This document shows, one piece after another, positions 1,731-33,800 of a DNA stretch of 39,447 nucleotides (within the stretch, counting starts at the first letter, position 1; the number at the start of each line of letters is the position of its first letter). The notes under the pieces were generated by a model. It was not told the origin of the DNA and did no database searches. It saw only the letters and a program-made list of their open reading frames with translations. Where the stretch lies: the IMG/VR virus record IMGVR_UViG_3300025312_000144. One strand, written 5' to 3'. Origin of the DNA: a virus. The position numbers and the translations under genes are program-made.

Positions 1731-1733
1731 ATT

Positions 1734-1910
1734 CTACTTTTCACCTTTAGGTATCATAAATCTTTCTATAAAGTCAGAGGACATCCCTATGTGATAACTA
1801 TTGGCTACAACTTGAGTAACTATATTAAATACCAGTTGACGAGTAATTAAACCTTTTTCGTAAAGTAATAAAAGACCTTTAACTAAATCCTCAAACCCTA
1901 ATTCTTTCAT
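1734..1910 (-). CDS. hypothetical small protein (58 aa)
   Basis: Hand-translated MKELGFEDLVKGLLLLYEKG...PKGEK. ATGA overlap with the upstream stop. Its 3' end carries the SD AAAGGTGA for the next gene. Confidence 0.6.
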   Translation of the reverse strand: MKELGFEDLVKGLLLLYEKGLITRQLVFNIVTQVVANSYHIGMSSDFIERFMIPKGEK

Positions 1911-14956: not shown

Positions 14957-15742
14957 TTAGATATACCTCTTAGTATAAGAAAAGCCGAAAGTAACGCTAC
15001 GGCCAGTAAAATTATCTTCATAGACTAGCTTTCTGGAAGTCCCTGGCTCGAAACTTAAAAACTTGCCGGTATAATCTACTTCAGTTCCGTTTACTGTTAA
15101 GGTCTTAGTAAAGCAATTAACTACTAGAACGTCGGTATTAACCCAATCTCTAGTGATACTTATTTCTTCGCCGGTATCGGGATTAGTCAAAGTAACTATC
15201 TTACCAGTCGCCCCACTTAGCGAAGCAAAGGTGAGAGTGATAGTAGGCAAGGCTTTATAGTTACCTAAAATGTTAAAGGTCTTTTCGCCGTAGAAGGCAG
15301 TTATAGCCGCACCCATCGCTATAGCGGTCGATTGCTCTCTATAACCGAACGGGTCGGAACAGATAAAATTGATAGAAAATGGTATAAAGCCACCTTGAGC
15401 CTCACTAAAGGTGATATTTTGCATTGTAGCGGTATAGACCCTCTCAAAGCCCCCTTGGTCTATTTTCAGAGGCTTTTCTTTAGGAGTAAGGTATTGCATT
15501 AGATTGTCTCTTGCTAACTCGGCTGCGGGGCGATTAGGAGCGATTATGGTTCCATCGATGATAATTTCACGCTGATTAAAGTCCGCCGAGACCATTTTAC
15601 CGCCGTCGTCGTTAGCCAAGCTCTTAGAATTGACCGCTCTAGTTGGGATAGAGTGGGATAATCTTTTAGTGAACTGAACGTACTCGACGTTGTCGAGGCG
15701 AACATAATTAAAATAGACTGGAAACAAATTATTATTTGCCAT
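14957..15742 (-). CDS. distal tail protein (Dit)
   Basis: 261 aa immediately after the tape measure. N-terminus LFPVYFNYVRLDN fits the siphovirus tail component family. Confidence 0.65.
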   Translation of the reverse strand: MANNNLFPVYFNYVRLDNVEYVQFTKRLSHSIPTRAVNSKSLANDDGGKMVSADFNQREIIIDGTIIAPNRPAAELARDNLMQYLTPKEKPLKIDQGGFERVYTATMQNITFSEAQGGFIPFSINFICSDPFGYREQSTAIAMGAAITAFYGEKTFNILGNYKALPTITLTFASLSGATGKIVTLTNPDTGEEISITRDWVNTDVLVVNCFTKTLTVNGTEVDYTGKFLSFEPGTSRKLVYEDNFTGRSVTFGFSYTKRYI

Positions 15743-17489
15743 TGTTTATAGTCAAACCCATTTGGGCAAGCTCCGTATTTCTACTTAATCTTTGTAAAAA
15801 GTTATCTGCTTGGACTTCCGAACCGATATTTATTGGCCCAGATATATTAGTCGTTACCGAGCGGTTATTTACTGTATCGCCGACGTTAGAAATAGCCGCC
15901 GGAGATAATCTACCCTCGAACCCTTTAGTTAGGTCTCCTATATCCTTGAACATAGTTCCGTAGAGGTCTGATATCCTAAGAGTACCTTTTTCTACCATTT
16001 GAACTAGACTAGGAGAGTGCTTACTAAAAGGATTTAACTTACTTAGACTATTACTAACGCTACTCATCTGGCTCTTAATCCAATTAAAGGCATCTCTAAA
16101 CGGCCCAACTATAGCGTTATATATAGAACCAGCTAAATTCTTGATATTAGTATAGAGCGACTTATACCAGTTAATAGTAAATTTTATATATTTAATAACT
16201 AAGGTCAAGAATTGAGCTACAAATTTTAGGTGTCTCACAAAGACAACTAAAGCCCCGATAACTAAAGCTCCGGCGACTACTGCTAGAACTTTTAGAACGG
16301 GGATAAGTATTGGCTTTATTAAGACCCATAAATCTCTTAGAGCCGGCCAAAGTTGGGTTTTAATAGTTTTCCATAAATCTTTAACCGCCGGTAAGACGTA
16401 AGTCCTAAAGGCAGAAGCGAAAAGTAAAAAGCCGGTTTTAACCGTATTTATAAAAGGCATAAAGGCGTTTATTGTATTCTGTAGGCCGCCGAAGTGTTGG
16501 ATTAACTTCTGTAAACCTAGTCCTAATAAAGCACCGGCCGCTATAAAAGGTATAAGCGGCGCCATCGTAGCGATAATACCGGCGGCTAGAGCCGCTAAAG
16601 CGGGAACTAAGCCACCGGCTATCGCTCCGGCGATAATAGGTAAGTGAGGTGCAAGCTGGCCTAATAATGCGGTAATTCTTTTCAAAAGACCCTCTGGGCC
16701 TCCCATAGAGGCGAGCCACTCGTTAAACTTATCAACCAATGGGGCTAATCGTTCGACAATAGCCTGTCCGACTAATTCTTGGAAGTCGTTAAAAGTATTT
16801 CTTAATCTAGTCATAGAACCGGCAAATGTAGTACCGGCTGCCTTAGCTGAACCGCCAAATTCTGTTTTTAGCTCTTTTAATATCATCGCTTGAGCCTTAG
16901 CAGCTTGACCAGTTTCTACTAATCTTTTAATAGTCTCTTGGTCGGTCTTATTAAAATTAACTCCGACTCTACGTAAAGCGGTTACTCCTAGTATCGGGTC
17001 TTGTAAAGCCTTACCTAATTGAATTGCAGAGGATTTAGTATCCTGACCTAACGCTTGAGACATATTAAGCATTGTTTCGGTAGCCTCTGGGAAAATATCC
17101 TTACTTATTTTGGTAAAGGTTAAAAGTAGGTTCTCGCCGGATTGGACTTGCTCGTCGGAAAATACGGTCGTACTCTGGAAAGCCTTAGCCAGCTTACTAA
17201 CTTGGTTAGCGGTAACTCCGGCAACGCCGCCGGTAGATTTTAATACTGCCTTAGTTTGCGTTAATACATTTTGGCTTTCTTGAAAGGCTTGTACCGACTT
17301 AACGCCGAATAGCGCTGCCCCTCCTGCGGCCGCAGTTAAACCTCCCAAAAGAGCAAACGAGCCAGTTTGGGCAGACTTCATCAACTTAGAGAAAGCCCCA
17401 GTCTTTTGGCTGGCTTTATTTAGACCCTGCTCGTAAGGTTTAGAGTCTAAATCTAGAGTTCCTTTTATCGCAAATACTTCTGTAGCCAT
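15732..17489 (-). CDS. tape measure protein
   Basis: 585 aa. Ala/Gly/Leu-rich helical protein with a central hydrophobic block. Canonical position after the G/GT chaperones. Confidence 0.8.
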   Translation of the reverse strand: MATEVFAIKGTLDLDSKPYEQGLNKASQKTGAFSKLMKSAQTGSFALLGGLTAAAGGAALFGVKSVQAFQESQNVLTQTKAVLKSTGGVAGVTANQVSKLAKAFQSTTVFSDEQVQSGENLLLTFTKISKDIFPEATETMLNMSQALGQDTKSSAIQLGKALQDPILGVTALRRVGVNFNKTDQETIKRLVETGQAAKAQAMILKELKTEFGGSAKAAGTTFAGSMTRLRNTFNDFQELVGQAIVERLAPLVDKFNEWLASMGGPEGLLKRITALLGQLAPHLPIIAGAIAGGLVPALAALAAGIIATMAPLIPFIAAGALLGLGLQKLIQHFGGLQNTINAFMPFINTVKTGFLLFASAFRTYVLPAVKDLWKTIKTQLWPALRDLWVLIKPILIPVLKVLAVVAGALVIGALVVFVRHLKFVAQFLTLVIKYIKFTINWYKSLYTNIKNLAGSIYNAIVGPFRDAFNWIKSQMSSVSNSLSKLNPFSKHSPSLVQMVEKGTLRISDLYGTMFKDIGDLTKGFEGRLSPAAISNVGDTVNNRSVTTNISGPINIGSEVQADNFLQRLSRNTELAQMGLTINNGK

Positions 17490-20636: not shown

Positions 20637-21938
20637 TTAGGATACTGTACCTGTTCCGATTAGCACGAAAGCCTCTGGGAATTGAACCAAGTTGTTAGCT
20701 CGGAACTCCGCCCTAAGAGCTTTAGCGTTCTGCTCGGCTAGGTTGACAGCATTAGCACCAGAGTCGTGAACTGTCGCCTCGGTAAGAGTGGTGAGGTTAA
20801 GTCCGGCTTTCCTAATAAGGGTGCTAAACTTCAAGTTCCCAAAGACAATGAAGGGTTCGTTTTCGTCACCCACTACATTGATATCGGGTAGAACTTCGAC
20901 TAACTCATAAGGATAGCCCCAGATAGTACCGGTGACTCCACCGTTTACCCCAGGTTGCCAAATGTAGTTATCGTTTTGGTCTTTAATTCTTTGAACTAAA
21001 CCAAGCAAGGTTCGGTGAAGGTAGAATTTAGCACCTACTAAAGCTCCTCCGTGAACCGTATAAATTGCTCTGTTTATATCATCGAAGTCAAGGTCGGCAA
21101 GAGCCGCACCTATAGTGACCGCGCCAGTACCGGCGGTACGTAGAATACCGCTAGTTGCGTCGGTAAAGACAAGAGTATCAATCAATCGGGCGCTTTCGAG
21201 GGCGAAGTCTTGGGTCAATTCGCTAAAGATATTGACTGCCGCATCTTCGTTTAGCTCGTCAGTTACGATTGCGATACCTGCAAACTTTCTCAAGTTTACG
21301 GTGTCTTGACCGAACGTCATCTTAGTTCCGGTCTTGGCAACGAGTTCGCCGGTTTCGTACATAGTTACTCCGCCAACTTTCTTGTTAAGAACAAGCGAGT
21401 TGGAACTAATAGTAACCGTTCTAGCGTCCCGCGCGGCTACTCCGTACACATCTTCAAGACGTGCAACTTCTGCGACGAAGTCTCGGTCAACTAGGAAACC
21501 ACCATCGGCGTTAGTAGTTTCGTTCTGATAGCCAGCTTTCTCTATTGCGTACTCGTTAAATCGCTTTAGAGTCGGTTGGTCATCTCGCATAAGAGCCTGA
21601 AGTCCTTTGAAGAACCTCACCTCTTTCGACATCTGTTCGATATCGGTTTTAACTTCTACAGTTGGAGTGTTAGCACCAATGTTTTTACTAACCACTGGCT
21701 CTATCTTCTCAACTGCTTTAGTTACGGCCTCGTCGACCTTTTTGGTAAGAACACCGGCAACTGAATTAGTAATCTTTTCCAAGGCATCCTCGGAAAGAAT
21801 TACCTCGTCGACAGTATCACCATCTTGGTCGTCTTTGGCTTTGGCCTCGGCTTCTAACGTTTCGAGTTCTTTTGCTTCCTCGTCGGTTAGAGTTTCGCCT
21901 TTAGCCTTTTTTTCTTGTAACTCTTTTAGTCTTTCCAT
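20637..21938 (-). CDS. major capsid protein, HK97 fold, with N-terminal scaffold-like delta domain
   Basis: The ATG at 21938 has GGAGG 6 nt upstream; the track start at 21950 is 4 codons earlier. Charged coiled N-terminus, then ...NADGGFLVDRDFVAEV... typical of HK97-family capsids. Confidence 0.8.
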   Translation of the reverse strand: MERLKELQEKKAKGETLTDEEAKELETLEAEAKAKDDQDGDTVDEVILSEDALEKITNSVAGVLTKKVDEAVTKAVEKIEPVVSKNIGANTPTVEVKTDIEQMSKEVRFFKGLQALMRDDQPTLKRFNEYAIEKAGYQNETTNADGGFLVDRDFVAEVARLEDVYGVAARDARTVTISSNSLVLNKKVGGVTMYETGELVAKTGTKMTFGQDTVNLRKFAGIAIVTDELNEDAAVNIFSELTQDFALESARLIDTLVFTDATSGILRTAGTGAVTIGAALADLDFDDINRAIYTVHGGALVGAKFYLHRTLLGLVQRIKDQNDNYIWQPGVNGGVTGTIWGYPYELVEVLPDINVVGDENEPFIVFGNLKFSTLIRKAGLNLTTLTEATVHDSGANAVNLAEQNAKALRAEFRANNLVQFPEAFVLIGTGTVS

Positions 21939-21950
21939 TATTACCTCCAT

Positions 21951-23051
21951 CTAGTTATCAGTACCAGATAGAATTTTGTTCACGCCGACTATAATAAGTT
22001 CGACTTGCTTATCGATAATCTGCGCGTGCTTCTTGGTCGTGACTAAAACCAACTTACGCTTACCCTTATTCTCACGCTTGTCGGTGACAAAGGCGGTTTT
22101 AATAGTATCCGCCATAGCCGACATCTGGGTTTGTAGCCCAGAAATTTGAGATGATAGGGTTTCAATACTTTTATCTTCGTCGATTTCTTCTATAGACTTA
22201 AATTCTGGTGCTTCTTCATCAAAATCTCCGTAATGACTCTTTAGGTGGTTATAAATTCCTTTTCTGTCTCCGCTAGGTACGTCTACTCCGCCTCTTGCTC
22301 CTAGTAAAGCTCCCATAGCGGCTTTAACTCCGTTCCAAACTACGGAGTGAGAACCGGCCGCTAAGTGGTGGGGAAGTTTATAACTAGATTTAACGTCAGG
22401 ATTTTCGCTATCGAACCAAGTAGAGATTGCCTTTAGTTTCGTCATATCGTCGCCGCATTCTCTAATCTGCATTGGCCCATTCCAAGCCATATCTTTATCG
22501 GCGAGTGGGGTTTTCTTATAGCCGATAACGCTCTTATCGGATATACTCTTATCTTCGCTGTCAGTAACTTCGCTAAATTCTTCAATCTCGTTAGTTTCTA
22601 GACCTTTACTTTTAGCGGTTACCATAGCTTCGCTATTAGCTGGCACCGGAACGACGCTAAATTCTAGCATCTCGCTTGCCGTCCAAGTATTATTTTCTTC
22701 GTCAAACTCTTTACCTATAAAACCAACCGAAAGACCGGTTAGATAACCACCGAGAATTAAGTTATATACCTGATTGGCAAGCATTGAGATTTCGGTAGCG
22801 AGCTTAAAACGGGCGATAAGCTGTCCGGCAGATTTGCGTAAAGATTGGGTTCTACCTATTGGTAGGCTTTGATAATCGTGGCCGTATAGGACTGGGCCTC
22901 CGGCGGCCATAAACTTTTTAACGTTTAGACCTTTTATATCTATCTTCTCGCCTTGTCTATCTATATCCTCGGTTGCGACTATACCCTCGACTTCGCCTTC
23001 GGCAAGTTTCTGGGCTTTAATAAGTTTAACTAATAATTGCTTTTTTAACAT
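21951..23051 (-). CDS. prohead serine protease (HK97 type) with C-terminal extension
   Basis: The ATG at 23051 follows AGGAG; the track start is a TTG at 23075. VEGIVATEDIDRQGEKIDIKG...YGHD is protease-like. The C-terminus has YKLPHH...GARGGV and a coiled coil. Confidence 0.75.
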   Translation of the reverse strand: MLKKQLLVKLIKAQKLAEGEVEGIVATEDIDRQGEKIDIKGLNVKKFMAAGGPVLYGHDYQSLPIGRTQSLRKSAGQLIARFKLATEISMLANQVYNLILGGYLTGLSVGFIGKEFDEENNTWTASEMLEFSVVPVPANSEAMVTAKSKGLETNEIEEFSEVTDSEDKSISDKSVIGYKKTPLADKDMAWNGPMQIRECGDDMTKLKAISTWFDSENPDVKSSYKLPHHLAAGSHSVVWNGVKAAMGALLGARGGVDVPSGDRKGIYNHLKSHYGDFDEEAPEFKSIEEIDEDKSIETLSSQISGLQTQMSAMADTIKTAFVTDKRENKGKRKLVLVTTKKHAQIIDKQVELIIVGVNKILSGTDN

Positions 23052-23078
23052 CTTACTCCTAACAAAAATCCGCAAATA

Positions 23079-23132: not shown

Positions 23133-23330
23133 TTATTTAGTTTTCAGTACGATTTTATTATATTGACTTCTAGGCTTACTGTCAATAGCGAACGAGTCGC
23201 GCTGGCTAACTATATATAATCGATTGACTGCCTTACAACGGTGGCACTTAATCGAACCGACTGCGGTTGAGAATAATCCTAGCATACCGGCGCAGTTAAA
23301 ACAGCGAACGTCTGGGATATTTCTACTCAT
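23133..23330 (-). CDS. Com-like zinc-ribbon protein
   Basis: VRCFNCAGMLGLFSTAVGSIKCHRCKAVN fits the Mu Com pattern RC..C..L.......i.C.RCK..N. Confidence 0.5.
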   Translation of the reverse strand: MSRNIPDVRCFNCAGMLGLFSTAVGSIKCHRCKAVNRLYIVSQRDSFAIDSKPRSQYNKIVLKTK

Positions 23331-24987
23331 ATTGTACCTTTCCGCTTATAGAGTAAGGTTCGATAGTTATTATTCTATCAGAACCTAATTTACCTTGTAT
23401 ATAACTTACTTTAATTTCGGCCTCTATACCGCTTGCCTTAATCGCCAAATTGTAATTCTTTTCTAGGACAAACTTAGGATACCTAATCTTCTCGGATAGT
23501 AAGAAATACCTTAACGACTTAGTAATTTTAACTTCCCTAAATATCGAGTATTTAAGGGACTTAGTTATGGCGTTTTCTTTGAAGATATAATAGGTTAGCG
23601 ATTTAGTTATCGCTTGGTCGGTTAAGACTTCGTAAGTAAGACCTTTGGTTATAGATACCGTTCTAAAGATAACGTACCGAAGCGATTTGGTTATAGCGTT
23701 TTCTAAAGCGATGCTATAAGTAAGACTCTTGGTTATCGCTACACCCTCTATAAATATCCGGTAGGTTAGGGATTTAGTAATTGGGTTTTCGGTAATAACT
23801 GTATATTTAAGGTCTTTAGTTACAGATAGACCTTGGCCTTCAATAACGTAAGTTAAGTTTTTAGTAATCGTAACTTCGGCTAGAACTTTATAAACTAGCG
23901 TTTTGGTAATAGCTGTCTCTATAGATATATAGTAGGTTAGGCTCTTAGTAACTGCCGCCGGAGTAGTTATAATCGTGTATTTAAGACTCTTAGTAACCGA
24001 CTGCTCAGATAGAACTACGTATTTAAGAGACTTCGTTATAGAGGTGGGAACGACTACTATATATTCTAGGGATTTAGTTATCGCCGTATCGGTAATAATT
24101 CTGTAAGTTAGCGACTTAGTAAGGGTAGTATCGGTAAGAACCGTGTATTTTAGGCTCTTGGTTATTGCTTGCTCGCTAGTAACTATATAGGTAAGCGATT
24201 TCGTAACTGCAGTATCGGTAACTACCCGATAAGTTAAACTTTTAGTAACGGCATTATCTGTAATAACTTCGTAGGTAAGACTCTTAGTTATAGAGGTATC
24301 GGTAAGAACCGTATACTTTAGGGATTTTGTAATCGCGGTAGTAGTTACCTGCTCGAAACCGAAGTTAATCTGGTCGGTCTTTAGTTGGAACGGGGCTAAG
24401 ACCGCGTAGGTTAAAGACTTAGTAATTGCGTTTTCTTTTAGAACCTCGTAATTTAAGGATTTAGTAACCGATATTTCTTTAATTACTTTATAGGTAAGAG
24501 ATTTCTGAACAATTAAAAGGTAATAAACCTTAACTTGTATATGGTCAATGTTTAAGCGGTTAGTATCTCCTGTACCTAACTGAAGTCCTCTAAGTCTAAA
24601 GTTAGCATCGCTAAACTCGTCTCTTGTCCAGCTTCTACCCCAAGTATCTGCACTCCCACCATAGGTCTTATTATCATCCGGAGTAGCGCTAAAAGCGGTA
24701 GAGTCTTTAGCGGTAGAATATGTAGAGCCACCATCCCAAGAAAGAGCTAATCTTAATCTCCTATCATTGCCAGCCCCGTTTTGGGCGTGTCCCTCAACCG
24801 TAGCTTCAATACCTACGATTATCGCATTTGCAGGTAAAGCGCTGATAATATCAAAGGTAGAGTAAATTTCAAAAGCACCGTTACTAATAGTATCCGCATA
24901 AGCATCATCAGTAGCGTGGGCATTATCCGGAAGTGTCCAATGAGCCGCCGCATTCGCTGTAGGTGACTTAAATCCTGTATCAGCCAT
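23323..24987 (-). CDS. repeat protein B (554 aa): beta-sandwich-like N-domain plus 23 copies of a 14-aa TKSLxY repeat
   Basis: K-x-L motif counted at aa 162, 176, 190, then 221 through 490, mostly at 14-aa spacing. Its start overlaps the stop of the upstream repeat gene (TAATG). Confidence 0.85.
   Translation of the reverse strand: MADTGFKSPTANAAAHWTLPDNAHATDDAYADTISNGAFEIYSTFDIISALPANAIIVGIEATVEGHAQNGAGNDRRLRLALSWDGGSTYSTAKDSTAFSATPDDNKTYGGSADTWGRSWTRDEFSDANFRLRGLQLGTGDTNRLNIDHIQVKVYYLLIVQKSLTYKVIKEISVTKSLNYEVLKENAITKSLTYAVLAPFQLKTDQINFGFEQVTTTAITKSLKYTVLTDTSITKSLTYEVITDNAVTKSLTYRVVTDTAVTKSLTYIVTSEQAITKSLKYTVLTDTTLTKSLTYRIITDTAITKSLEYIVVVPTSITKSLKYVVLSEQSVTKSLKYTIITTPAAVTKSLTYYISIETAITKTLVYKVLAEVTITKNLTYVIEGQGLSVTKDLKYTVITENPITKSLTYRIFIEGVAITKSLTYSIALENAITKSLRYVIFRTVSITKGLTYEVLTDQAITKSLTYYIFKENAITKSLKYSIFREVKITKSLRYFLLSEKIRYPKFVLEKNYNLAIKASGIEAEIKVSYIQGKLGSDRIITIEPYSISGKVQYE
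23494..24516 (-). repeat. in-frame degenerate 42-nt tandem repeat array (23 units, one 19-aa interruption)
   Basis: Corresponds to aa 158..498 of repeat protein B. Boundaries are approximate. Confidence 0.8.
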
Positions 24988-27900
24988 TATGCGCCCTCCT
25001 GATAAACTCTAATCGTAACGTGATTATTAGCATCGTAGTAATCTCCAACGCCAACGGTTATAGAGCCGTCTAAATCGAAGTCGGTATCTGCTCCGGTAGT
25101 ATTATCGCTATCTAAGTTTTCCCAACTCGCTAAGGTATAGTTATAAATCTGTAAGTAAACTGTCGAAGTAGTAGGGGCAAGTTCGGTCTGCCCGTTCCAA
25201 TGTATATTTATATCGTCGGTGTCGTTATCGTGCCTATATCTATAATGGTGTATTGCAAATTCTACCCCTTCACCTTCTATAGCCACTCTTACCGCGTCAT
25301 CGGTCGCAACGTCTAGATAGTCTTGCGAAGAATACTGCGTTGCTAGAGGAGTTTCGTTGGCCGGTAGGCTCGCTTTGGCTTCCCTTGTATAAAAGGTTCT
25401 AGCTATAGCGTAAGTTAAACTCTTAGTAATAGCGGTATCGGTTATAACCTCGTAAGTTAGGTTTTTAGTAACCGCTACTTCTTTCAATACCCGATAAGTC
25501 AGGCTCTTAGTTATCGCAGTCTCTACCACAACGTGATAAGTTAAAGATTTAGTTAAACTATCGGTGGTTAAGACCCTATATTCTAGGGACTTAGTTACTG
25601 CCGACGGGGTAGTAAAGACCGTATATTTTAAGCTCTTAGTTACTGCCTGTTCCGAAACTACTATATAGGTAAGACTTTTGGTTACTGCCGTATCAGTTAC
25701 GACTCGATAAGTCAACGATTTAGTAATCGAGGTAGAAGTTAAGACCTCGTAATTAAGAGATTTAGTTATTACTATATCCGTTAGGATTTCGTAGGTAAGA
25801 GCTTTGGTTATAGCCGAGTCGGTAATAACTGTATATTTAAGAGATTTAGTAAGCGCTTCTGCTTGCTTAACCGTATACTTTAGGGATTTTGTAATCGCCT
25901 GTTCGCTGGTTACTATATAAGTAAGAGACTTCGTAATCGAACTATCTGTTAAGACGGTATATTTTAAGGACTTCTGTATTAGAACCGGCGCGGCGGCCTC
26001 AACCTCGTAGGTAAGAGACTTGGTAATAGAACTATCGGTTAGTACGCAATACTTTAGAGATTTAGTTATCGGCTGTTCTATAAAAACCCGATATTCTAGA
26101 GATTTAGTTACAGAGTCGGAAGTTAATACTGTGTATTTAAGAGATTTAGTAACTGCCGTATCCGTTAGAACCGTATATTTCAAAGACTTAGTAACAGACT
26201 GCTCGGAGGTAACTATATAAGTTAGGCTCTTTGTAACTGCTGTATCGGTTAGAACCCGATAGGTAAGAGATTTCGTAACCGCAGAAGGGGTTGTGATAAT
26301 TGTATATTTAAGAGATTTCGTAATCGCAGCGACTTCGGTAGTAACTGTATATTTAAGACTCTTTGTTACGGCGTTTTCTTTTAATACTCTGTAGGTGAGG
26401 GACTTCTGCACTGCGGTATCTGTTAAGACGGTATATTTTAGGCTTTTGGTAACCGCAATTTCTTTTAGAACGGTATATTTTAGTGATTTTTGGATTGTTT
26501 CTGTAGAAACCGCCGAACCTAAATTGTAAACTGTGAAGTTATCGGTGTCGTTGTCTGCATCCATATCATCGCCGGAATTTACCAATACCGTACCACCACC
26601 CCAAGCTAATCCTGCTTTGCCTGCGGCGGTTATATCGGTGTCTGTGGCAGAAGCTACTTCTACGCCATCTATATAGAATTTGAGAGCCGAGCCGATTATT
26701 TCTAATTTACAAATCGCACCGTTATAAGGTGGGGAAAAAGCAGAACCTAAAGTAGCCCAACCACCTGCCGTAGTTCTTTTATAAAGCTGGCAAGTATTAG
26801 TTCCGCCTTGGTCGTTTATGCGAACTGCGTACATATTATCTGCGTCCTGAACCCTTACCAAAGCGTATTGAGGAGAAGAAGTACCAGCATCCAAAATGCA
26901 CATTTCAAACTCAACTGCGTAATCAGCCGAGGGGTAGGTTGCGTCTGCGGTATAGATAACCCCATCATTCAAATCTCCTGCGGGACTGGCTCTATCTGTA
27001 GCCGCCATAGCGGAAGCCCCTGTACCTGCAGAACTGGCTAATCGTGTCCAGCTTGTTCCTATATCTGGGGTTTTGCTTTCAAGTGCGGTATTTGAGGAAA
27101 CTGCAAACTGGTCTCTAAAGACCATACTGGCGGTCTTTTCCCAATAACCAATGTAAGCCCACATCTGCGAAATCCAAACGTCAGGGGTTGCATCAGGAGC
27201 CGAGGCACCAATTTGTGCTCCGTCCCACATTGGAGGTGTCCAGCTTCCACCACCTTGAGGGTCGGTGTAGGAAACTAATTTGTATATTCTAGTAGCACCG
27301 GCAGTATCGTCGTGGGTATTAAAGCTGGCAGAAGCAATAGCGGTAGTAGTTCCTGTAACTGTAGTACCGCTTGCCTGAGATTTAATTCTAGGTAGCCAAG
27401 AACAGGCTGTTGCAGTTTCACCTCTTACCCTCGCACCAACCGCAACAAATCCAATTAAAGCGTCAGAAGGTAGCCCAATATCAGCACTACTCTGCATATT
27501 GTATTCGGGGGTTTCAGTAGTATCTATCTCAATATAATCGGCATCATCGTTGTCATTTATACTCGTGTAAAGTCCGGCGGTAGCGGCGTTGTCTCCTGCG
27601 GCGTTAGGCAAGGACATTACTAGCTTTATTCTATTAGGCCAGCTTTCAAAATCTGCTCCGTTTGCGTGGGTAACAATTACACAATCGTCAAAGTAAATTG
27701 TGGCTGTCTCTGCTCCCATAATCCCAATTTCGCTGTATCGGTGATTTGCACCGGCAGATATAGTCGCTCCTTCGGCTACCATAACTCCGTTGAGCTTCAA
27801 TTTAGCGTCGTTACCTCCGTGGGTGGTACCAACGTCAAGCTCAATGACATTTTCAAAGCTATCTAGGGTAATTGCAGGTGTATCTGAACCTAGTTGTACC

Positions 27901-28235
27901 GCCCCGCTATCGTCCCAAAGCTCCAAAGTACCATTTGAATTTATCCTTACCGAAGTATGGTCGCCGCCGCCGTCAGAAAGTTGGATTATTTTGGTAAGCC
28001 CAGAAGGTAAACCCCCTGTAGGAACGTAAATAGCGTACTGTCTAACAAAATCATCTGCGGTTTCGTTTGACTCCAGCCTTACCGATATTTCCGAGCCAGT
28101 AGAAGCAAATTTTAGGGAAGCCGCACCACTTCGTTTGATAGAAGTGTCGATTGTAGGTACACCGACTTTAGAATGTAACTCAACTGTGTCGGTTAAATCT
28201 TGTTTTTCAAACCCTGTTATATGAATTACCGACAT
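24987..28235 (-). CDS. repeat protein A (1082 aa): two ConA/LamG-like N-terminal domains, 26 copies of the 14-aa TKSLxY repeat, C-terminal beta-sandwich-like domain
   Basis: K-x-L motif counted at aa 583..938 with spacing 14 (occasionally 15-16). N-terminal segments such as GAASLKFASTGSEISV and YAVRINDQGG...LYKRTTAGGWATLG resemble lectin/glucanase-fold domains. Confidence 0.85.
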   Translation of the reverse strand: MSVIHITGFEKQDLTDTVELHSKVGVPTIDTSIKRSGAASLKFASTGSEISVRLESNETADDFVRQYAIYVPTGGLPSGLTKIIQLSDGGGDHTSVRINSNGTLELWDDSGAVQLGSDTPAITLDSFENVIELDVGTTHGGNDAKLKLNGVMVAEGATISAGANHRYSEIGIMGAETATIYFDDCVIVTHANGADFESWPNRIKLVMSLPNAAGDNAATAGLYTSINDNDDADYIEIDTTETPEYNMQSSADIGLPSDALIGFVAVGARVRGETATACSWLPRIKSQASGTTVTGTTTAIASASFNTHDDTAGATRIYKLVSYTDPQGGGSWTPPMWDGAQIGASAPDATPDVWISQMWAYIGYWEKTASMVFRDQFAVSSNTALESKTPDIGTSWTRLASSAGTGASAMAATDRASPAGDLNDGVIYTADATYPSADYAVEFEMCILDAGTSSPQYALVRVQDADNMYAVRINDQGGTNTCQLYKRTTAGGWATLGSAFSPPYNGAICKLEIIGSALKFYIDGVEVASATDTDITAAGKAGLAWGGGTVLVNSGDDMDADNDTDNFTVYNLGSAVSTETIQKSLKYTVLKEIAVTKSLKYTVLTDTAVQKSLTYRVLKENAVTKSLKYTVTTEVAAITKSLKYTIITTPSAVTKSLTYRVLTDTAVTKSLTYIVTSEQSVTKSLKYTVLTDTAVTKSLKYTVLTSDSVTKSLEYRVFIEQPITKSLKYCVLTDSSITKSLTYEVEAAAPVLIQKSLKYTVLTDSSITKSLTYIVTSEQAITKSLKYTVKQAEALTKSLKYTVITDSAITKALTYEILTDIVITKSLNYEVLTSTSITKSLTYRVVTDTAVTKSLTYIVVSEQAVTKSLKYTVFTTPSAVTKSLEYRVLTTDSLTKSLTYHVVVETAITKSLTYRVLKEVAVTKNLTYEVITDTAITKSLTYAIARTFYTREAKASLPANETPLATQYSSQDYLDVATDDAVRVAIEGEGVEFAIHHYRYRHDNDTDDINIHWNGQTELAPTTSTVYLQIYNYTLASWENLDSDNTTGADTDFDLDGSITVGVGDYYDANNHVTIRVYQEGA
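25398..26501 (-). repeat. in-frame degenerate 42-nt tandem repeat array (26 units)
   Basis: Corresponds to aa 579..946 of repeat protein A. The codon for E579 was checked at 26501. Confidence 0.8.
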
Positions 28236-28664
28236 CTAAATATCTCCAAACTTAGATAATAAAGCTCCGGTTAAATCGGTTTTACTATCAACAACCCAAA
28301 TCTTTGCACAATTATCTTGGTTGGCTAGTTTTGTAAGCCAGATTACAATTTGCTCTTTGGAGTAGTCTTGCCCGCTAAACCAGATAAATCTAGCGTTAGG
28401 AAGGTATAGTTGGCCGGTAGTGGCTTTAATAAGCTCGTCCTTAACGGATTTATCTACCTTATCGCCTATACCTATATAAAATCTAATATAGCGTTCGGTA
28501 GGGGAAGTAGATTTGAGGATATAAGTATCTTCGTTTTTCTCAACCGCCAGTTTATTTAAGTCGGTAAACTTGCTGATTAAAGTAGACAGGTCAATAGAAC
28601 CGACCGAGTTGTCGATTGCTACTAAAATTGCATAAGTTTGAGGTATGTTAAAATTAGCTTCCAA
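28236..28664 (-). CDS. hypothetical protein (142 aa, apparent TTG start)
   Basis: Track ORF with no recognisable motif and no ATG near the 5' end. Confidence 0.55.
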   Translation of the reverse strand: MEANFNIPQTYAILVAIDNSVGSIDLSTLISKFTDLNKLAVEKNEDTYILKSTSPTERYIRFYIGIGDKVDKSVKDELIKATTGQLYLPNARFIWFSGQDYSKEQIVIWLTKLANQDNCAKIWVVDSKTDLTGALLSKFGDI

Positions 28665-28677
28665 TTATTACGATACA

Positions 28678-29094
28678 TTACTGTCCTTCTATTTTAATTC
28701 TGTTTGTATCCTCCGTCACTACAACATTATCGTTCGGCATTATTACTAATATCACTTTATGCGAAGCACCTTGAAAGTGGGTTTCGTAGCCGAAAGTATA
28801 GAGCGTATAAAGAAGCTCGTTAGTATTTAAGTTCCTCGTTCTTTTGTATTTGTGAATTAGTTTCCTAGAGGGGTGCCAGTCTATATCGAAGAACTTACCG
28901 GTTTCGTGATTTACCATACGAAACACTCTCATCTGAGGTTGATTTATTTCTCTAAGTTGGTGGAAATTACCGTCGTCGTCGAATTGTTTGAGGACTGTAC
29001 CGTCTAGATAATTGACTTCCCAACACCATTTCTCTATAGGTACTTTTTCATCTTCGCCCGTTTCGGGTCGATGATAAGTGTAGATTTCTTGCAT
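28678..29094 (-). CDS. hypothetical protein (138 aa)
   Basis: AAGGAG lies 8 nt upstream of the ATG. No recognisable motif. Confidence 0.65.
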   Translation of the reverse strand: MQEIYTYHRPETGEDEKVPIEKWCWEVNYLDGTVLKQFDDDGNFHQLREINQPQMRVFRMVNHETGKFFDIDWHPSRKLIHKYKRTRNLNTNELLYTLYTFGYETHFQGASHKVILVIMPNDNVVVTEDTNRIKIEGQ

Positions 29095-29141
29095 TGTATT
29101 GCTCCTTTCGCATTGTATTGCTCGGTTTGAATTGTAAAGGT

Positions 29142-29315
29142 TTACTTTTCTGCTTTTCTTGCTTCGCCTCGTTTTAAGGCGTTCTCGCTTACTCTCTTAA
29201 ATCTTTCGCCTAAGTGGTCTTGGTCGGTAGGTGTAAAACCAGTCGTTTTACAAATATGACTTAAATAAATTTCTTCACTTTCGAATTTTATAGAACATTG
29301 TCCGCAGGTAGCCAT
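29142..29315 (-). CDS. small zinc-finger-like protein (57 aa)
   Basis: Hand-translated MATCGQCSIKFESEEIYLSHICKTTGF...ARKAEK, with a C-x2-C...H-x-C pattern. Confidence 0.5.
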   Translation of the reverse strand: MATCGQCSIKFESEEIYLSHICKTTGFTPTDQDHLGERFKRVSENALKRGEARKAEK

Positions 29316-29317
29316 AG

Positions 29318-30022
29318 TTAAGCTGTTTCGTCGTACTGGTAGTTCATCGTAGAAGTAGAACCAGCGACATCAGCGACGTTAGTTTGTATTTGGTGTACTA
29401 AGAAGTCAGAGTATCCGGCCGCGCTTCTAGAACCTGCTAAAGAACCATCTATACCAAGGTTGGCACCAGAAGGCTCGGAAGTAGGCATTGTTTGAGTTGC
29501 TACGGTAGAGTCAGAAGCGGTCGGTGCGACGTATTCTTTTCTATCGTAAGAAGTTTCTCTAGCGTTGGTAACGTGGACTGCCGCACCACCTAAAGCCGAC
29601 GTTCTCCAAACTTTAAGATTATCAATAAGAGAAGAACCACCCATAGCGGTAATATGTACCTTTTGGTATTTTTCGAAAGTGTTTGCGTCTGGAACAACGG
29701 GGTTGGCTACAGGGTCTAAGTTTGGGTCGTCAACCGAACCCATATCGGTATCAGATATATTGTGTGTAAATTCACCCTGAATTATATAAGACTCGGTAGA
29801 GTTAAATATATCTGCTGATAAGGAAAGGACGGTAGCGCTATCAACGGCGGTTACAAAAGCGAAAAGGTTATCGGTAGAGTTCCAAACTTCATCACCTACG
29901 TCAACGCCCTCGGCAGTAAAGTTTGCGGCACTATCCGTCAGCTTATTGGCTGTAACGGTAGTGTTTGTACCTGTCGACTTTTGAGCATCATTTGCTTCAT
30001 CAATCTCAACTGTAGCGGCCAT
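29318..30022 (-). CDS. hypothetical Thr/Ser/Asn-rich protein (234 aa), possibly virion-associated
   Basis: Has its own promoter-like element and no SD. Five N-x-S/T triplets fall within the first 95 aa. Confidence 0.65.
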   Translation of the reverse strand: MAATVEIDEANDAQKSTGTNTTVTANKLTDSAANFTAEGVDVGDEVWNSTDNLFAFVTAVDSATVLSLSADIFNSTESYIIQGEFTHNISDTDMGSVDDPNLDPVANPVVPDANTFEKYQKVHITAMGGSSLIDNLKVWRTSALGGAAVHVTNARETSYDRKEYVAPTASDSTVATQTMPTSEPSGANLGIDGSLAGSRSAAGYSDFLVHQIQTNVADVAGSTSTMNYQYDETA

Positions 30023-30031
30023 ATTAGTTAT

Positions 30032-30061
30032 ACTATAAAGTTAGTACCCTCCGTTTGTCAA
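30032..30061 (-). promoter_or_regulatory. sigma-70-type promoter giving a near-leaderless transcript
   Basis: Minus strand TTGACA (30061..30056), 18 nt, TATAGT (30037..30032). The ATG at 30022 is only 9 nt after the -10. The decamer TTGACAAACG is shared with the 6975 promoter. Confidence 0.45.
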
Positions 30062-30072
30062 TAGATATAATT

Positions 30073-30429
30073 TTAAGTAGTTCTCCTAGTAATATCTTCG
30101 ATAACTTTTAATTGTCGCGCCGGAAGCGAAAATATATTATTAGCCGTATCTTTAACTTGAACGTCGTAATAATAAATTCCCGCCGCTATATCTGTATCGC
30201 TAGAGTCTAGAGGTATTACCGTTTCGCCGTTAGTCGGGTCGGTATGCGAAGTAACTTCTACCGCTATTAAAGCGTCGGCGTCGGTAGCGTCGGCGTCGGG
30301 AACTGGTTTAACCGTAAAGAATACCGTAGAGCCAGTTAAATCTATAGCTATCCCGTCTTGGTCGGTTAAAGTTAAAGTTATATTAGTTGTATCGCCTCTA
30401 ATTATTACTAAGTTTATTGATATAGGCAT
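30073..30429 (-). CDS. Ig-like / BppU-N-like small structural domain protein
   Basis: The ATG at 30429 follows GGTGGAG and sits after the portal stop. IRGDTTNITLTLTDQDGIAIDLTGSTVFFTVKP is typical of phage Ig-like beta-sandwich domains. Confidence 0.55.
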   Translation of the reverse strand: MPISINLVIIRGDTTNITLTLTDQDGIAIDLTGSTVFFTVKPVPDADATDADALIAVEVTSHTDPTNGETVIPLDSSDTDIAAGIYYYDVQVKDTANNIFSLPARQLKVIEDITRRTT

Positions 30430-30431
30430 AT

Positions 30432-32489
30432 TTACTCCACCACCGGTATTACCGTACAGGTACAATTAGGGTGTAACGGTGGGCCTTCCACGCTATCGTA
30501 ATCTATATTATAAATCCCGCCTTCTGTACCGCTTATAGACTGCCCTGGCTCTAAATATGTAGTCTCTAGACCTAAGACCGTTCCGTGTATAGCTTGGCAG
30601 AATTGACAAGCCCCTGGATTAGCAAACCACTCTTTTTTAACTACGAAGCCGGTTTGCCGATAGGCTTCTAAAGTCGCCTCTGTACTAGCATCTAGAGTCT
30701 CGGTTCTCGCTATTCTTTCGGCTCTAAACTTTTCGCTACTACTATAAAAACTTTCTATCTTTTTAGTAGTATCTCTTAGAGTAGCGTTATTTAAGGTCGC
30801 GTCAGTTAGTATCTTTTCTAGTTCCTGTCTAGTTTCTCGATTGAAATTCAAACCGGCTCTGGCTAATCTATCCTTTAGATTATCCGTTATTCGTTGCGTT
30901 ATCTCAAACTTTAGCTTTTCTTCGCCGGCTAACTGTAAAGCGATTGGGCCTTGGTCTTTAGCCAATTCTACCAAAATCGGATAGACTTCTTCTATTAGTC
31001 TTTTAGTTTCTTCGTCTAAATCAAATAAAATATCGTTATACGCTTTCGACCTAACGAACTGCGGAGTTAGTCTATCTATAACTACCTTCTCTTGTTTTTT
31101 TAAGAATTTAACTACTTGCTTTTTCGTAACCTTAGCGTACTTCTCTTGCATCTTAATAAGCGAAATTCTAAAGTTCTCCTTAGTTTCGGGACTAATAATT
31201 AGCGCTTTAATCTTCGGTCTTTTATGGTGGATTATTTTAATAGTCGCCTTGCCATTTTCCTTTTTAACGTCAGTTAGAATTTTCGCTGCTATTGGCGAGC
31301 CGGCCGGAGATAGATTAAACGGCAGGTAAAACTGGTTTCCGCCTTCTGTTTCTCCTAAACCTTTTTCGGCTCTAATCTCGTCTCTGGTTTTCCACATATT
31401 GATAGCGGCAGTATCTTCGGAAAGTTGGGAGGTTCTATCTTCTGGGACGGGCGACTCGTATCTAACGGTAATCGAAGGGTCGCCGTAGGTCTTATCGATA
31501 TAAGTTTCTAAAGTATCGGCTATTCGATACATCTTCGGGTCGATAACTCTCTTAGCGAAAATATACTCGCTACTTTCGGCGTTTGCTCTATTTACGTCCT
31601 CGGTAATACCTAGAATTGGTTTAGGAACTCGAAACATCGCCATAATATCATCTCGGCTCATATGCTTAGCGGTCTCTAAAGCTATCCCTTCTAAACCTGT
31701 TCCTAGTTGTGTAAAAGTAACTTCGGAGTTTCTAACGATTGCTACCTTACCGGCGTTATCAACGCTTCCATACTCGCTTCTCCAGCGTTCCTTAAGCTGC
31801 TTAAAATCGTCCTCGTTCATTTGCGGTACAGATAAAATACCGCTAGGACGAGCGTTATTAAATAAGAAGTTTCTAGTAAATCTAGAAGCGTATTCTTCTG
31901 TTTGTATATAAAGCTGTCCGGCCGCGACTACTCCGTAACCTCTAGATGGGTCTTCAGGATTAGGTAGCTTAAAATGCATTACTTCGTCTAATTCTAGGGG
32001 TACTTGCTCTCCGCTCGGTAGGTTATAAACGTAGCCCGTTATATATCCGTTCTTAGCCATTATTACTTGGACTAAATCTGGTCTTAATAAATAAATCTCT
32101 TTAGGCTTTCTCGAAACCTCACCAACCCTAAAATACCAAAAAGCCTCTCCGGTTAATTCTATAAAGGCTTGGGTCAATTCAAATAAAACAAACTGCGAAA
32201 TAAAAGGATTAGGTTTTCTTAGCAGGGTAATAAAAGGGTGGTTATCGATTTCTACTTCATCGCCTCTAGAATTATCTTTAACTATTTTGAATTGTATTTT
32301 TCCTACTTCTCCGGCTATCGCCCCTACGCAAGTCCAGACGTAGCCGACGTTACTTTTTAATTGGGTTCTTTTAGTAATAGCGTTGGGATTAGACCAATCC
32401 AGCATAAAGGTATTCTGCGAAGGTGTATTATCACCAAATCCGGCGAATAGTTTTCCGACTATTGGTATTCGGACAAGCGGGTTAGCCAT
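30432..32489 (-). CDS. portal protein fused to a MuF / SPP1 gp7-like head-morphogenesis domain
   Basis: 685 aa. The N-terminal ~400 aa are portal-like. The C-terminus FRAERIARTETLDAS...KKEWFANPGACQFCQ...GPPLHPNCTCTVIPV carries the MuF-family signature. Confidence 0.75.
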   Translation of the reverse strand: MANPLVRIPIVGKLFAGFGDNTPSQNTFMLDWSNPNAITKRTQLKSNVGYVWTCVGAIAGEVGKIQFKIVKDNSRGDEVEIDNHPFITLLRKPNPFISQFVLFELTQAFIELTGEAFWYFRVGEVSRKPKEIYLLRPDLVQVIMAKNGYITGYVYNLPSGEQVPLELDEVMHFKLPNPEDPSRGYGVVAAGQLYIQTEEYASRFTRNFLFNNARPSGILSVPQMNEDDFKQLKERWRSEYGSVDNAGKVAIVRNSEVTFTQLGTGLEGIALETAKHMSRDDIMAMFRVPKPILGITEDVNRANAESSEYIFAKRVIDPKMYRIADTLETYIDKTYGDPSITVRYESPVPEDRTSQLSEDTAAINMWKTRDEIRAEKGLGETEGGNQFYLPFNLSPAGSPIAAKILTDVKKENGKATIKIIHHKRPKIKALIISPETKENFRISLIKMQEKYAKVTKKQVVKFLKKQEKVVIDRLTPQFVRSKAYNDILFDLDEETKRLIEEVYPILVELAKDQGPIALQLAGEEKLKFEITQRITDNLKDRLARAGLNFNRETRQELEKILTDATLNNATLRDTTKKIESFYSSSEKFRAERIARTETLDASTEATLEAYRQTGFVVKKEWFANPGACQFCQAIHGTVLGLETTYLEPGQSISGTEGGIYNIDYDSVEGPPLHPNCTCTVIPVVE

Positions 32490-32516: not shown

Positions 32517-33800
32517 TTAAATAAAATCAAATTCAACATTTGGTTGATAAACTAAGCGCCAGCACATCTCTAGAGCATCGATAACGTCTAGATTTTCGCT
32601 ATCGGGATAATCCTGCATCTCTTGCCAAAGTTCGTTATCACCCTTAAATAAAATCTGGCCGGTGTTAATAAAAGGCTCTAAACTCTCGATACGCTCCTCT
32701 TTTTTCTTACTTTGGTTTATCCCCTCGAACGGTATGTAGCGACCCCTATCTTGGCTTTTTTCCTTAATAACGTCTAAAAAGTATTTCTGGAATTGTACCG
32801 ACTCTATCCCAAACCTCTCGAATTGGTAGGGTAAGTTAAAGATAGTTCGGATAGTTTCTTCGGGCGGCATTTGCTTACCGATACTTTCTACCTCGTAGAC
32901 TTTACCGTTCTTATCTTTTCCTAAAACTACGATACCTACTAAACTACCCTTCTTAGTTTCTCCTAGAGCTAAATCGCAAGAACCCCAGTATTTAACTATC
33001 TCCGGTAGGTATTCGTATTTTTGCGGCTTAAAGTAAGTAAACTCGTTAGCTTCGGGAAATTGGACTAAATAGTATCGCTTCCAATCTTTACCGGTCGTTT
33101 GCGATTTCTGTTGCTCTAATCTTTCTTGGTTTATTCTGCCTTCCGCTATAGCTTGCTCTAGAGGTACTCTAACCTTTTTATAAAGCGGGTCTTTGTAGGC
33201 GGTCTCGAAGATACTATTCTCGATACAGTTTCCGCTTAATACCATTTTACCCCAGTCGCCCTCTAGCATACGAACTATTTTAGAAAATTGCTCTTGCCGT
33301 TTTATTAGTCCGGCTTCTTCGACTACTACTATATCCCCACCCTCGCCGACTACTCTTTCGCCTTCTCTAGTTATATTTCTAGAGTCTACGCTAGTAATAT
33401 AAATCCAGCCCCCGTCATACCACCGCAAGGCTTGCTTACTCATCTGCACTTTTAGTTTTTCTATATCGGAAATATCGGCGTTAATTAGACCTTTATATAA
33501 CTTAGGGTGGTTAGAGATATGCTCTAAAACATACTCCATAATCTTCTGGGCTTTTTCTTCACTACCGGCGACAATAGGTATTTTTAGATTGCGGAAAACT
33601 GCTAGATAAAGACAGGCTATCGCTATATCGTCCGTTTTACCGTAGCGCGTAGGAGCAGAAATCCAAACCCACTTATATTTAGGATTAGTAACCGCTTCGA
33701 AAATATCGCACTGCCCGTCGGTTAAATCAAACGGCTTACCCTGTTTCGTTCGGAACAGGCTCGCTACCAGCGTCTTTATTATCCGGTTCTTCTTCGTCAT
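32517..33800 (-). CDS. terL: terminase large subunit
   Basis: 427 aa. Walker A-like ISAPTRYGKTD and a later VVVEEAG (Walker B-like). Position follows TerS. Confidence 0.8.
   Translation of the reverse strand: MTKKNRIIKTLVASLFRTKQGKPFDLTDGQCDIFEAVTNPKYKWVWISAPTRYGKTDDIAIACLYLAVFRNLKIPIVAGSEEKAQKIMEYVLEHISNHPKLYKGLINADISDIEKLKVQMSKQALRWYDGGWIYITSVDSRNITREGERVVGEGGDIVVVEEAGLIKRQEQFSKIVRMLEGDWGKMVLSGNCIENSIFETAYKDPLYKKVRVPLEQAIAEGRINQERLEQQKSQTTGKDWKRYYLVQFPEANEFTYFKPQKYEYLPEIVKYWGSCDLALGETKKGSLVGIVVLGKDKNGKVYEVESIGKQMPPEETIRTIFNLPYQFERFGIESVQFQKYFLDVIKEKSQDRGRYIPFEGINQSKKKEERIESLEPFINTGQILFKGDNELWQEMQDYPDSENLDVIDALEMCWRLVYQPNVEFDFI

Follow-up and report, generated by a model that had tools for sequence, protein, structure and literature searches.

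Two giant genes built on a 14-residue repeat in the head module of a phage-like genome: candidate surface fibres or adhesins

Introduction

What use might a phage make of two giant genes, placed among those that build its head, whose products repeat the same 14-residue unit dozens of times? The question is raised by the window analysed here, that is, the whole 39 447-nucleotide stretch of IMG/VR virus record IMGVR_UViG_3300025312_000144, a phage-like genome of about 39.4 kb with virtually every gene on the minus strand. Two adjacent genes, which we name A and B, occupy 4913 of its 39 447 bases (12.5% of the window). Spending some 12% of a 39-kb genome on a pair of genes bespeaks clear selection. 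The reading that we favour, with a probability of about 0.55, makes A and B accessory fibres or adhesins of the virion surface, in which lectin-like domains carried on a β stalk of tunable length, attached to head or neck, would bind host glycans reversibly. We arrive at fibres or adhesins because of the synteny found in most of the relatives examined, together with the modular lectin or enzyme heads that are joined to the repeats.

The repeat unit and its two arrays

The two reading frames, both taken from the list of open reading frames (ORFs) and, for B, also from the junction sequence, are the following.

24987..28235, minus strand: gene A, 1082 amino acids (aa), with an N-terminal β-sandwich module, a LamG domain, a 26-unit array and a C-terminal domain
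23323..24987, minus strand: gene B, 554 aa, translationally coupled to A via TAATG

The genes have a single base in common within GCATAATGGCT (the TAATG overlap), and an AGGAGG Shine–Dalgarno sequence lies inside the 3′ end of A. The start codon of A, ATG, follows immediately on the TAG that ends the upstream gene and is preceded by GGAG at a distance of 9 nt.

A scan for [TQ]K[STGAND]L finds 26 occurrences in A and 23 in B; shuffled sequences average 0.37 and 0.31 and never exceed 4 and 3, respectively. The consensus of the unit is [AS]-[IV]-T-K-S-L-[TK]-Y-x-[VI]-[LIF]-T-[ED]-x. The lysine at position 4 (K4) and the leucine at position 6 (L6) are present in 49 of 49 units, T3 in 45, S5 in 43 and V or I at position 10 in 48; Y8, though outside the search pattern, is again found in all 49. 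Glycine stands at position 5 in one unit, and neither Gly nor Pro is conserved at any position. Successive units of A are set 14 residues apart in 21 cases, 15 in three and 16 in one. The spacing in B is 14 residues 18 times and 15 three times, with one gap of 31 that corresponds to a 17-aa insert after unit 3. Insertions are confined to the turn made of positions 13-14-1, in A and B as in the arrays of the wider family described below. No other real ORF of the window carries the unit, when searched for as a docking unit elsewhere in the genome.

A first-pass annotation, made from the letters of this DNA, had already recognized much of this anatomy. It described coupled genes of 1082 and 554 aa with a TAATG overlap, and the ORF coordinates agree exactly; it placed about 12 percent of the genome between portal and prohead protease, an order that is seen in the PHROG matches, for a share that we find to be 12.5%; and its 26 and 23 units come out the same from a pattern scan that stands far above shuffles. 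Two statements need amendment. Spacing is indeed 14, rarely 15–16, if one sets aside the 31-residue gap in B, and the alleged lack of Gly and Pro holds at conserved positions, with occasional Pro or Gly in the turns.

Are such arrays real? Tandem Repeats Finder detected zero DNA-level repeats within them. Mean identity between units is 53% at the amino-acid level and 55% at the nucleotide level; when units have the same amino acid, the codon is identical in only 40% of the cases, Ser being drawn from both TCN and AGY codons, and Leu from both CTN and TTR. Furthermore, an independent MEGAHIT contig (L007), 99.67% identical to the window across 16.4 kb, differs from it by 16 substitutions in the A–B region and has identical unit numbers. 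The Tandem Repeats Finder null, the scrambled codons and L007 rule out an assembly artefact or a recent DNA amplification. The scrambled codons and the conserved numbers of units show that the arrays are real, old and under selection at the protein level. The early worry that they could be assembly artefacts is dispelled by the same structure in L007, the contig on which the check was made. Their length does change, by whole units: A has close homologues in P0001–P0003 and B in P0017, and the near-identical relatives P0002 and P0017 lack 4 and 8 units, in frame. This whole-unit change, combined with the variety of heads attached to family arrays, is what one would expect of a modular stalk of variable length.

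A family absent from the catalogues

The repeat is not found in the catalogues of known families. Pfam gives no significant match in A 580-948 or B 159-500 (best E 0.12–0.37, all under cutoffs), NCBIfam has zero matches to the arrays, PHROG offers no functional annotation for the repeat, the PDB contains no relevant match by phmmer or with a 60-sequence, 5-unit profile, even at E ≤ 10, and the motif was not found in the literature searched. In the libraries available, no profile of the known repeat families YadA/Hep_Hag, CW_binding_1, pentapeptide, collagen or RTX matched within the arrays, and these candidates were dropped. The proposal of the first-pass annotation that this is an undescribed repeat family therefore holds against Pfam, NCBIfam, PHROG annotation and the PDB, the latter by sequence, profile and Foldseek. 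So does its remark that the unit fits neither collagen-like nor triple-β-spiral nor pentapeptide repeats: there is no profile or PDB match, and inspection of the arrays finds neither G-X-Y nor pentapeptide periodicity. One match could mislead. It is to phrog_15087, 'scaffolding' (E 3.3e-5), falls within the repeats, and was rejected as an indication of a scaffolding protein. To judge from its sequence, the major capsid protein has an N-terminal coiled-coil, delta-like region, and a capsid protein with its own delta-like N-terminus makes a scaffold role for A or B unnecessary.

Absence from the catalogues does not mean rarity. A word-indexed search with B retrieved 130 proteins. An exhaustive HMMER search with its array (B 159-500) in a space of 1.84 billion cluster representatives, clustered at 50% identity, matched 380 clusters at an E-value cutoff of 1e-3 and 152 at 1e-30, the longest protein reaching 2697 aa. 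Looking for the 14-aa motif in metagenomes had been suggested at the outset; with these 380 clusters, the repeat is not peculiar to this phage. A scan of IMG/VR found no relative of B.

We define the family by at least five tandem units at 14–16 residue spacing, with K4, L6 and Y8; A and B both belong to it. Together, 197 retrieved proteins carry 4243 units, at a spacing of 14 or 15, rarely 16. Their arrays comprise 5–31 units and usually lie C-terminal to variable globular regions, followed by a tail that is typically short (median 48 aa). The domains joined to them include LamG, Kelch β-propellers, DNRLRE and peptidoglycan amidase_2, and one protein, P0183, has arrays on both ends of its LamG domains. 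K4 is kept at about 94% across the family, and a regex-free MAFFT alignment of 64 proteins shows Y8 to be invariant or almost invariant.

Whom do these phages infect? The capsid protein of the window shares no more than 27% identity with its counterpart in any cultured phage, and host assignment failed. An array protein with a DNRLRE head, P0061, is encoded on L003 (JBAQFL010000098.1), a 38-kb phage-like contig in a metagenome-assembled genome (MAG) of Minisyncoccia. Unless it is a binning artefact, the presence of this contig in a CPR (candidate phyla radiation)/Patescibacteria bin is a hint that some members of the family may have CPR bacteria as hosts.

A recurrent slot in the head module

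The genes that delimit the locus are these.

32517-33800: large terminase (PHROG match)
30432-32489, minus strand: portal-MuF fusion (PHROG portal and minor-head matches)
21951-23075: prohead protease (PHROG match)
20637-21950: HK97-type major capsid protein (PHROG match)
15732-17489: tape measure protein, tail module
14957-15742: Dit, tail module

Between portal and protease lies an insert of six genes (30022 down to 23323), the last two of which are A and B. The tail module is separate and complete, with the tape measure protein, Dit, four more genes downstream and an amidase-LysM endolysin.

Relatives follow the same logic with variations. On L002 the order is portal-MuF, small genes, P0004, an 830-aa protein, a 306-aa protein, protease and capsid gene. 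L003, L005, L010, L011 and L012 have the capsid gene, small genes, the array protein, head-completion or gp10-like genes and then the tail tube; on L009 the array gene is downstream of the capsid gene. P0119, a member with an amidase domain, occupies the same capsid-to-connector slot. Likewise, gp13 of Streptomyces phage Keanu, which has the N-terminal module of A, is flanked by the major capsid protein on one side and by the head-to-tail adaptor on the other. A location in the head module, one mark of head fibres and decoration proteins, is thus found in the window and in most of the relative contexts examined.

This location bears on an alternative: that A and B would be tail side fibres or receptor-binding proteins, set at the baseplate or along the tail, with genes that merely happen to lie outside the tail module. 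Tail fibres do typically have a conserved N-terminus, then a repetitive shaft and variable domains; in the Streptomyces phages Hiyaa and Galactica the homologous gene is annotated as 'minor tail protein'; and some matches to the lectin domains in the structure database BFVD are tail fibre or minor tail proteins. Nevertheless, most contexts examined have the gene upstream of those for the head-to-tail connector, never after Dit or Tal, and the window has post-Dit genes of its own. The BFVD matches reflect the generic ConA fold, and the 'minor tail' label is an unverified annotation. We hold a tail location to be unlikely.

Lectin-like and other domains of A and B

The arrays are attached to globular domains, distributed as follows.

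27141..28235, minus strand: A residues 1-365, a ConA-like jelly roll (~1-190) and a second β-sandwich (~200-365)
26523..26966, minus strand: A residues 424-571, LamG/ConA-like lectin domain (Pfam PF13385, Laminin_G_3)
25392..26498, minus strand: A residues 580-948, 26 tandem 14-aa units, spacing 14–16
24990..25391, minus strand: A residues 949-1082, C-terminal domain opening with the array-capping motif FYTRExKxSLP
24514..24987, minus strand: B residues 1-158, N-terminal β-rich domain (strands predicted with low confidence by AlphaFold2, AF2)
23488..24513, minus strand: B residues 159-500, 23 units (3 units, the 17-aa insert, 20 units)
23326..23487, minus strand: B residues 501-554, short C-terminal tail, read from the translation

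At the N-terminus of A, residues 3-372 match phrog_14065 (PHROG 14065, function not annotated) with E 1.3e-36. AF2, run with a 23-sequence alignment, models residues 1-365 as two β-sandwiches, with a confidence score (pLDDT) of mostly ~75–89. Foldseek against the PDB relates the N-terminal domain to ConA-like lectins and glucanases (E 8.5e-6 to 4e-4), among which Cip1, TtX122, botulinum toxin Hc, neurexin LNS, sialidase lectin domains and galectins. Against BFVD, the N-terminal module resembles stand-alone phage proteins of 320–360 aa (TM-score 0.62–0.67), one of which bears the name 'virion structural protein'. It is kept at the N-terminus of P0004–P0015 and of gp13 of the Streptomyces phages Keanu and Hiyaa, and the N-terminal domain also heads giant proteins with other repeats in a similar genome position.

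Further along, Laminin_G_3 is the sole significant Pfam family in A (30.1 bits for a cutoff of 27.6, E 6.1e-7). With this match and the ConA-like Foldseek matches, at E ~1e-5, the ConA/LamG-type nature first ascribed to the flanking domains is borne out. The same cannot be said of the ATDDA motif that these domains were thought to share: the best BLASTP E-value is 0.07, which gives it no statistical support, and a domain common to A and B on this ground was dropped.

The C-terminal domain of A is present in P0003 and in P0004, the repeat of which differs, and exists also as stand-alone proteins of 106–135 aa. One protein related to it, P0101, has a weak match to Pfam GH114_assoc. A conserved cap motif, Y-[TS]-R-x-[DA]-[DK]-x-x-[LF]-[PS], often ends the arrays (P0018, P0024, P0141, A, P0004), and runs on, in A and P0004, into a β-sandwich domain of ~130 aa; other array members terminate in tails of the PY..SPYSKK type. 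As for the N-terminal domain of B (1-158), neither Pfam nor NCBIfam has a match to it. Its sequence shares 36% identity with a segment of a large multi-domain protein encoded at L008 8870-9334, on a contig from a Promethearchaeota (Asgard) MAG.

Sister repeats with the same period

Proteins homologous to A at both ends bear different repeats with the same 14-residue period. P0004 and its 830-aa neighbour repeat TFTVDGIVKxxxTx, at a spacing that is almost always exactly 14, and P0006 repeats TQTIxGxARIxxxx. With hhalign, no similarity is detectable between the [IV]TKSLxYxV array and the type of P0004 (E 0.44) or that of P0006 (E 0.8); the latter two are weakly similar to each other (E 0.001). 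Unrelated repeats of exactly 14 residues in the same slot could point to a geometric constraint shared by the fibre. Inside one phage, the two or three adjacent proteins have the same unit type: L002 10001-16785 encodes consecutive proteins of 1107, 830 and 306 aa with ~28, ~40 and 1 copies of TFTVDGIVKxxxTx. Co-encoded proteins with a common unit type (two here, three in L002) may co-assemble through their arrays.

What fold for the array?

Monomer models of the arrays have low AF2 confidence, with a pLDDT of 55–69 in B and 44–70 in A (model means 54–57), and present two patterns. In B and parts of A, each unit makes a strand of ~11 residues and a 3-residue turn; in A residues 726-890 it makes a 7-residue strand followed by a one-residue bridge. 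Over the whole family, composition is turn-like at position 5 (Ser, Gly, Thr, Ala, Asp) and at positions 13, 14 and 1 (Thr, Ser, Pro, Ala), which would slightly favour the second pattern. Foldseek with the low-confidence B model retrieved nothing below E = 1 (best 1.1), with weak beta-solenoid names only.

Statistics over the units give few clues as to a higher-order period. Identity between units is 0.459, 0.471 and 0.479 at lags 1, 2 and 3, without a super-period of 2 or 3 units, and unit counts have no preferred parity. Against a null of within-protein shuffles, the only covariation between neighbouring units couples the adjacent turn positions 12–14 to 1 (z ~5–6). I2, L6, Y8 and V10 lie on one face of the strand, and this face must be buried, whether inside a flattened solenoid or where the chains of an oligomer meet. 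An obligate oligomeric fibre would be expected to give such low confidence when modelled as a monomer. It may be that the array makes a new fibrous fold, most likely an obligate oligomeric β structure with a core ladder of Leu and Tyr and a ladder of Lys and acidic residues, for the capsid or neck fibres of a large group of siphophages of ~40 kb, none of them cultured; we put this forward as a speculation, rather unlikely as it stands.

The array could also be more than a support. It might itself form a multivalent surface, with a Lys/Tyr ladder of sites for cell-wall polymers or glycans on the model of the choline-binding or toxin CROP β-hairpin repeats, an idea compatible with attachment to the virion. 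The strictness of K4 and Y8 (49/49 here, ~94% and near-invariant in the family) is in line with it, as are the several members that pair few units with peptidoglycan amidase_2 and the arrays of P0183, flanking LamG domains at both ends. The placement of Y8 on the face of I2, L6 and V10, however, suggests burial rather than exposure; the arrays have no similarity to CW_binding, CROP or other known binding repeats; and the homologous proteins of the slot use unrelated 14-aa repeats devoid of this K and Y, which argues for a structural role. Binding by the array itself is thus improbable in our view.

Proposed role of the A and B proteins

How would accessory fibres or adhesins of this kind work? 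A and B would be expressed late by a siphovirus, from within the head-morphogenesis module, and be attached most likely to the capsid or neck. Their globular β-sandwich and lectin domains (the ConA-like module and LamG in A, a β-sandwich in B) would be joined to a rod of 14-residue units, each contributing one β strand – or a long strand with a one-residue bridge – and a tight turn. The array would act as a rigid spacer, adjusted in length by whole units, that keeps carbohydrate-binding or enzymatic domains off the particle. Glycans of the host envelope would be bound reversibly, ahead of tail-mediated infection. When the locus was first noticed, a capsid fibre or adhesin had been proposed: fibre or adhesin is what synteny and modular heads best support, and we do not retain the preference for the capsid over the neck.

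Several observations weigh against this picture. The presence of A and B in virions is inferred, with a single hint in the BFVD match that bears the name 'virion structural protein', and neither PHROG, Pfam nor the PDB contains a known capsid-binding, decoration or head-fibre domain homologous to them. The array models are of low confidence, with two strand patterns. One context, that of L006, has an array gene without recognizable structural neighbours, the sole uninformative one. Finally, K4 and Y8 are stricter than a pure spacer needs, hinting at a role of the array itself in binding or assembly.

Could sugars be carried by the arrays instead of being bound? The arrays would then be the preferred O-glycosylation substrates, through Thr, Ser and Tyr, of enzymes of the phage, making a glycan-coated fibre. 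The window does have the appropriate genes.

314-2836, minus strand: gene cluster for a Glyco_trans_1_2 glycosyltransferase, an FkbM-type methyltransferase and a class-I S-adenosylmethionine (SAM) methyltransferase

Glycosyltransferase and methyltransferase genes are also adjacent to a stand-alone copy of the C-terminal domain of A in L013, and there is a precedent in mycobacteriophages, where phage-encoded glycosyltransferases have been linked to capsid glycosylation (PMC11256854). The glycosyltransferase of the window, at 1907-2836, is however some 20 kb away, among early or DNA-metabolism genes, hence without linkage to A and B, and many of the family contigs examined have none near the array gene. 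Nothing in the sequence is evidence of a modification, and the conservation of T3 and S5 is equally well explained by β-strand and turn propensities. That each unit exposes Thr, Ser and Tyr hydroxyls, as the first-pass annotation had it, is not supported, Y8 sitting on the hydrophobic I-L-Y-V face; nor is its view of both proteins as obvious candidate substrates of the glycosyltransferase island. We consider glycosylation of the arrays very doubtful.

Least probable of all, A and B might be non-virion proteins (secreted or cell-bound lectins, exclusion factors or matrix binders) from a moron-like cassette in the head operon, as an insert that breaks the usual portal-protease-capsid gene order and has its own 11/12 promoter-like site, with a perfect sigma-70 consensus next, before the protease gene, could suggest, were it not that they are co-stranded and tightly coupled with structural genes, take 12% of a 39-kb genome, sit in a slot that is used in very divergent phages and have no signal peptide or membrane anchor evident by inspection.

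Comparison with known systems

With reference to fibres and adhesins already described, the triple β-spiral shafts of adenovirus fibre and reovirus sigma1 come first to mind (van Raaij 1999, as listed in the references of PMC12796354). They too are made of short tandem repeats, of ~15 residues, with alternating hydrophobics, and form on the virus particle a rod with a distal binding domain, the number of repeats varying among relatives, as our reading of A and B would have it. The arrays differ in their period, 14 and not 15, and in the lack of conserved Gly or Pro in the turn, which sets them apart from this class; there is no sequence or profile match to PDB chains, and the best Foldseek E-value, obtained on a low-confidence monomer model, is 1.1. 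The sister repeats of P0004 and P0006, with their central Gly, look more spiral-like than the [IV]TKSLxYxV unit.

A 14-residue period is also that of the heads of YadA-type trimeric autotransporter adhesins, the repeat of which is said, in work of Nummelin and co-workers from 2004, to be a left-handed parallel β-roll. Stalk or head of β-solenoid type and adhesin context are further likenesses. Yet the YadA consensus abounds in Gly, Ala and Ser and has small residues in its core, Pfam returns no YadA or Hep_Hag match for A or B, and the bulky L6 and Y8 would be hard to place in a 14-residue monomeric coil. The choline-binding (CW_binding_1) and clostridial toxin CROP repeats resemble the arrays as short tandem β repeats with conserved aromatics in every unit and enzymatic partners that include amidases. 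They are unlike them in a period of at least 20, a β-hairpin per unit and conserved Gly and Trp, and Pfam returns no match.

Closer in genome position are phage head fibres and decoration proteins. Hoc and pb10 are built on Ig (immunoglobulin)-like domains. Like A and B as we read them, T4 Hoc, T5 pb10 and phi29 gp8.5 (reviewed in PMC7602432) are non-essential accessories whose genes lie in the head module and which hold binding domains out on the capsid surface. The title of Xiang and Rossmann (2011), cited in PMC12796354, describes gp8.5 as a helical triple coil. A and B have no similarity of sequence or fold to these proteins.

The nearest counterparts of A are gp13 of Keanu and Hiyaa and the proteins of PHROG 14065. 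They have in common an N-terminal module of ~370 aa at 30–32% identity; the gp13 proteins are likewise giant (~1100 aa), LamG-like in the middle and repetitive towards the C-terminus, and encoded in the head module. Their repeats are unrelated to ours: in these actinophage versions they are longer, with a period of ~20 residues, and rich in Ala and Gly.

That a repetitive shaft holds binding domains on a virus particle is familiar from adenovirus and reovirus, phi29 and decoration proteins. What appears to be undescribed is the repeat family, its conserved slot in the head module, and the swap of 14-residue repeats between homologous proteins. Repetitive fibre shafts are among the few remaining sources of new protein folds, and make useful scaffolds for engineering. 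A slot that recurs in the head modules of very divergent uncultured phages, including CPR-binned contigs, offers a handle on the first contact with the host, and a solved structure of the array would let hundreds of giant ORFs of metagenomic phages be annotated. Should the array be a mere spacer of familiar solenoid type, the annotation would still be useful, without a conceptual advance.

Neighbouring genes and minor observations

Other features of the insert and its borders are listed here.

30073-30465, minus strand: 130-aa protein directly after the portal, matching phrog_1084 (function not annotated) with E 1e-16
30032..30061, minus strand: promoter-like site TTGACA-18-TATAGT (11/12, consensus match only), upstream of the 234-aa gene and of the insert
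28236..30022, minus strand: three small genes (234, 138 and 142 aa) that lie within the insert, upstream of A, and are also present on L007
23157-23185, minus strand: perfect sigma-70 consensus TTGACA-17-TATAAT (12/12), just upstream of the protease gene
23133-23330, minus strand: 65-aa ORF that overlaps the end of B and contains the 12/12 sigma-70 consensus

The three small genes have no PHROG or Pfam match. With the 11/12 promoter-like site ahead of it, the six-gene insert may form a transcription unit of its own. The 65-aa ORF resembles Com, the zinc-ribbon translational regulator of Mu (phrog_6417, E 1.4e-4; Zn_ribbon_Com, E 2e-3, below cutoff). The portal-MuF fusion is likewise found in the relatives L002, L003 and L011, and L002 also encodes QueC and GTP cyclohydrolase I, of the 7-deazaguanine pathway. 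The 130-aa protein that follows the portal has weak matches to the BppU_N and Invasin_D3 Ig-like domains, and may on this account be a further small surface or decoration protein.

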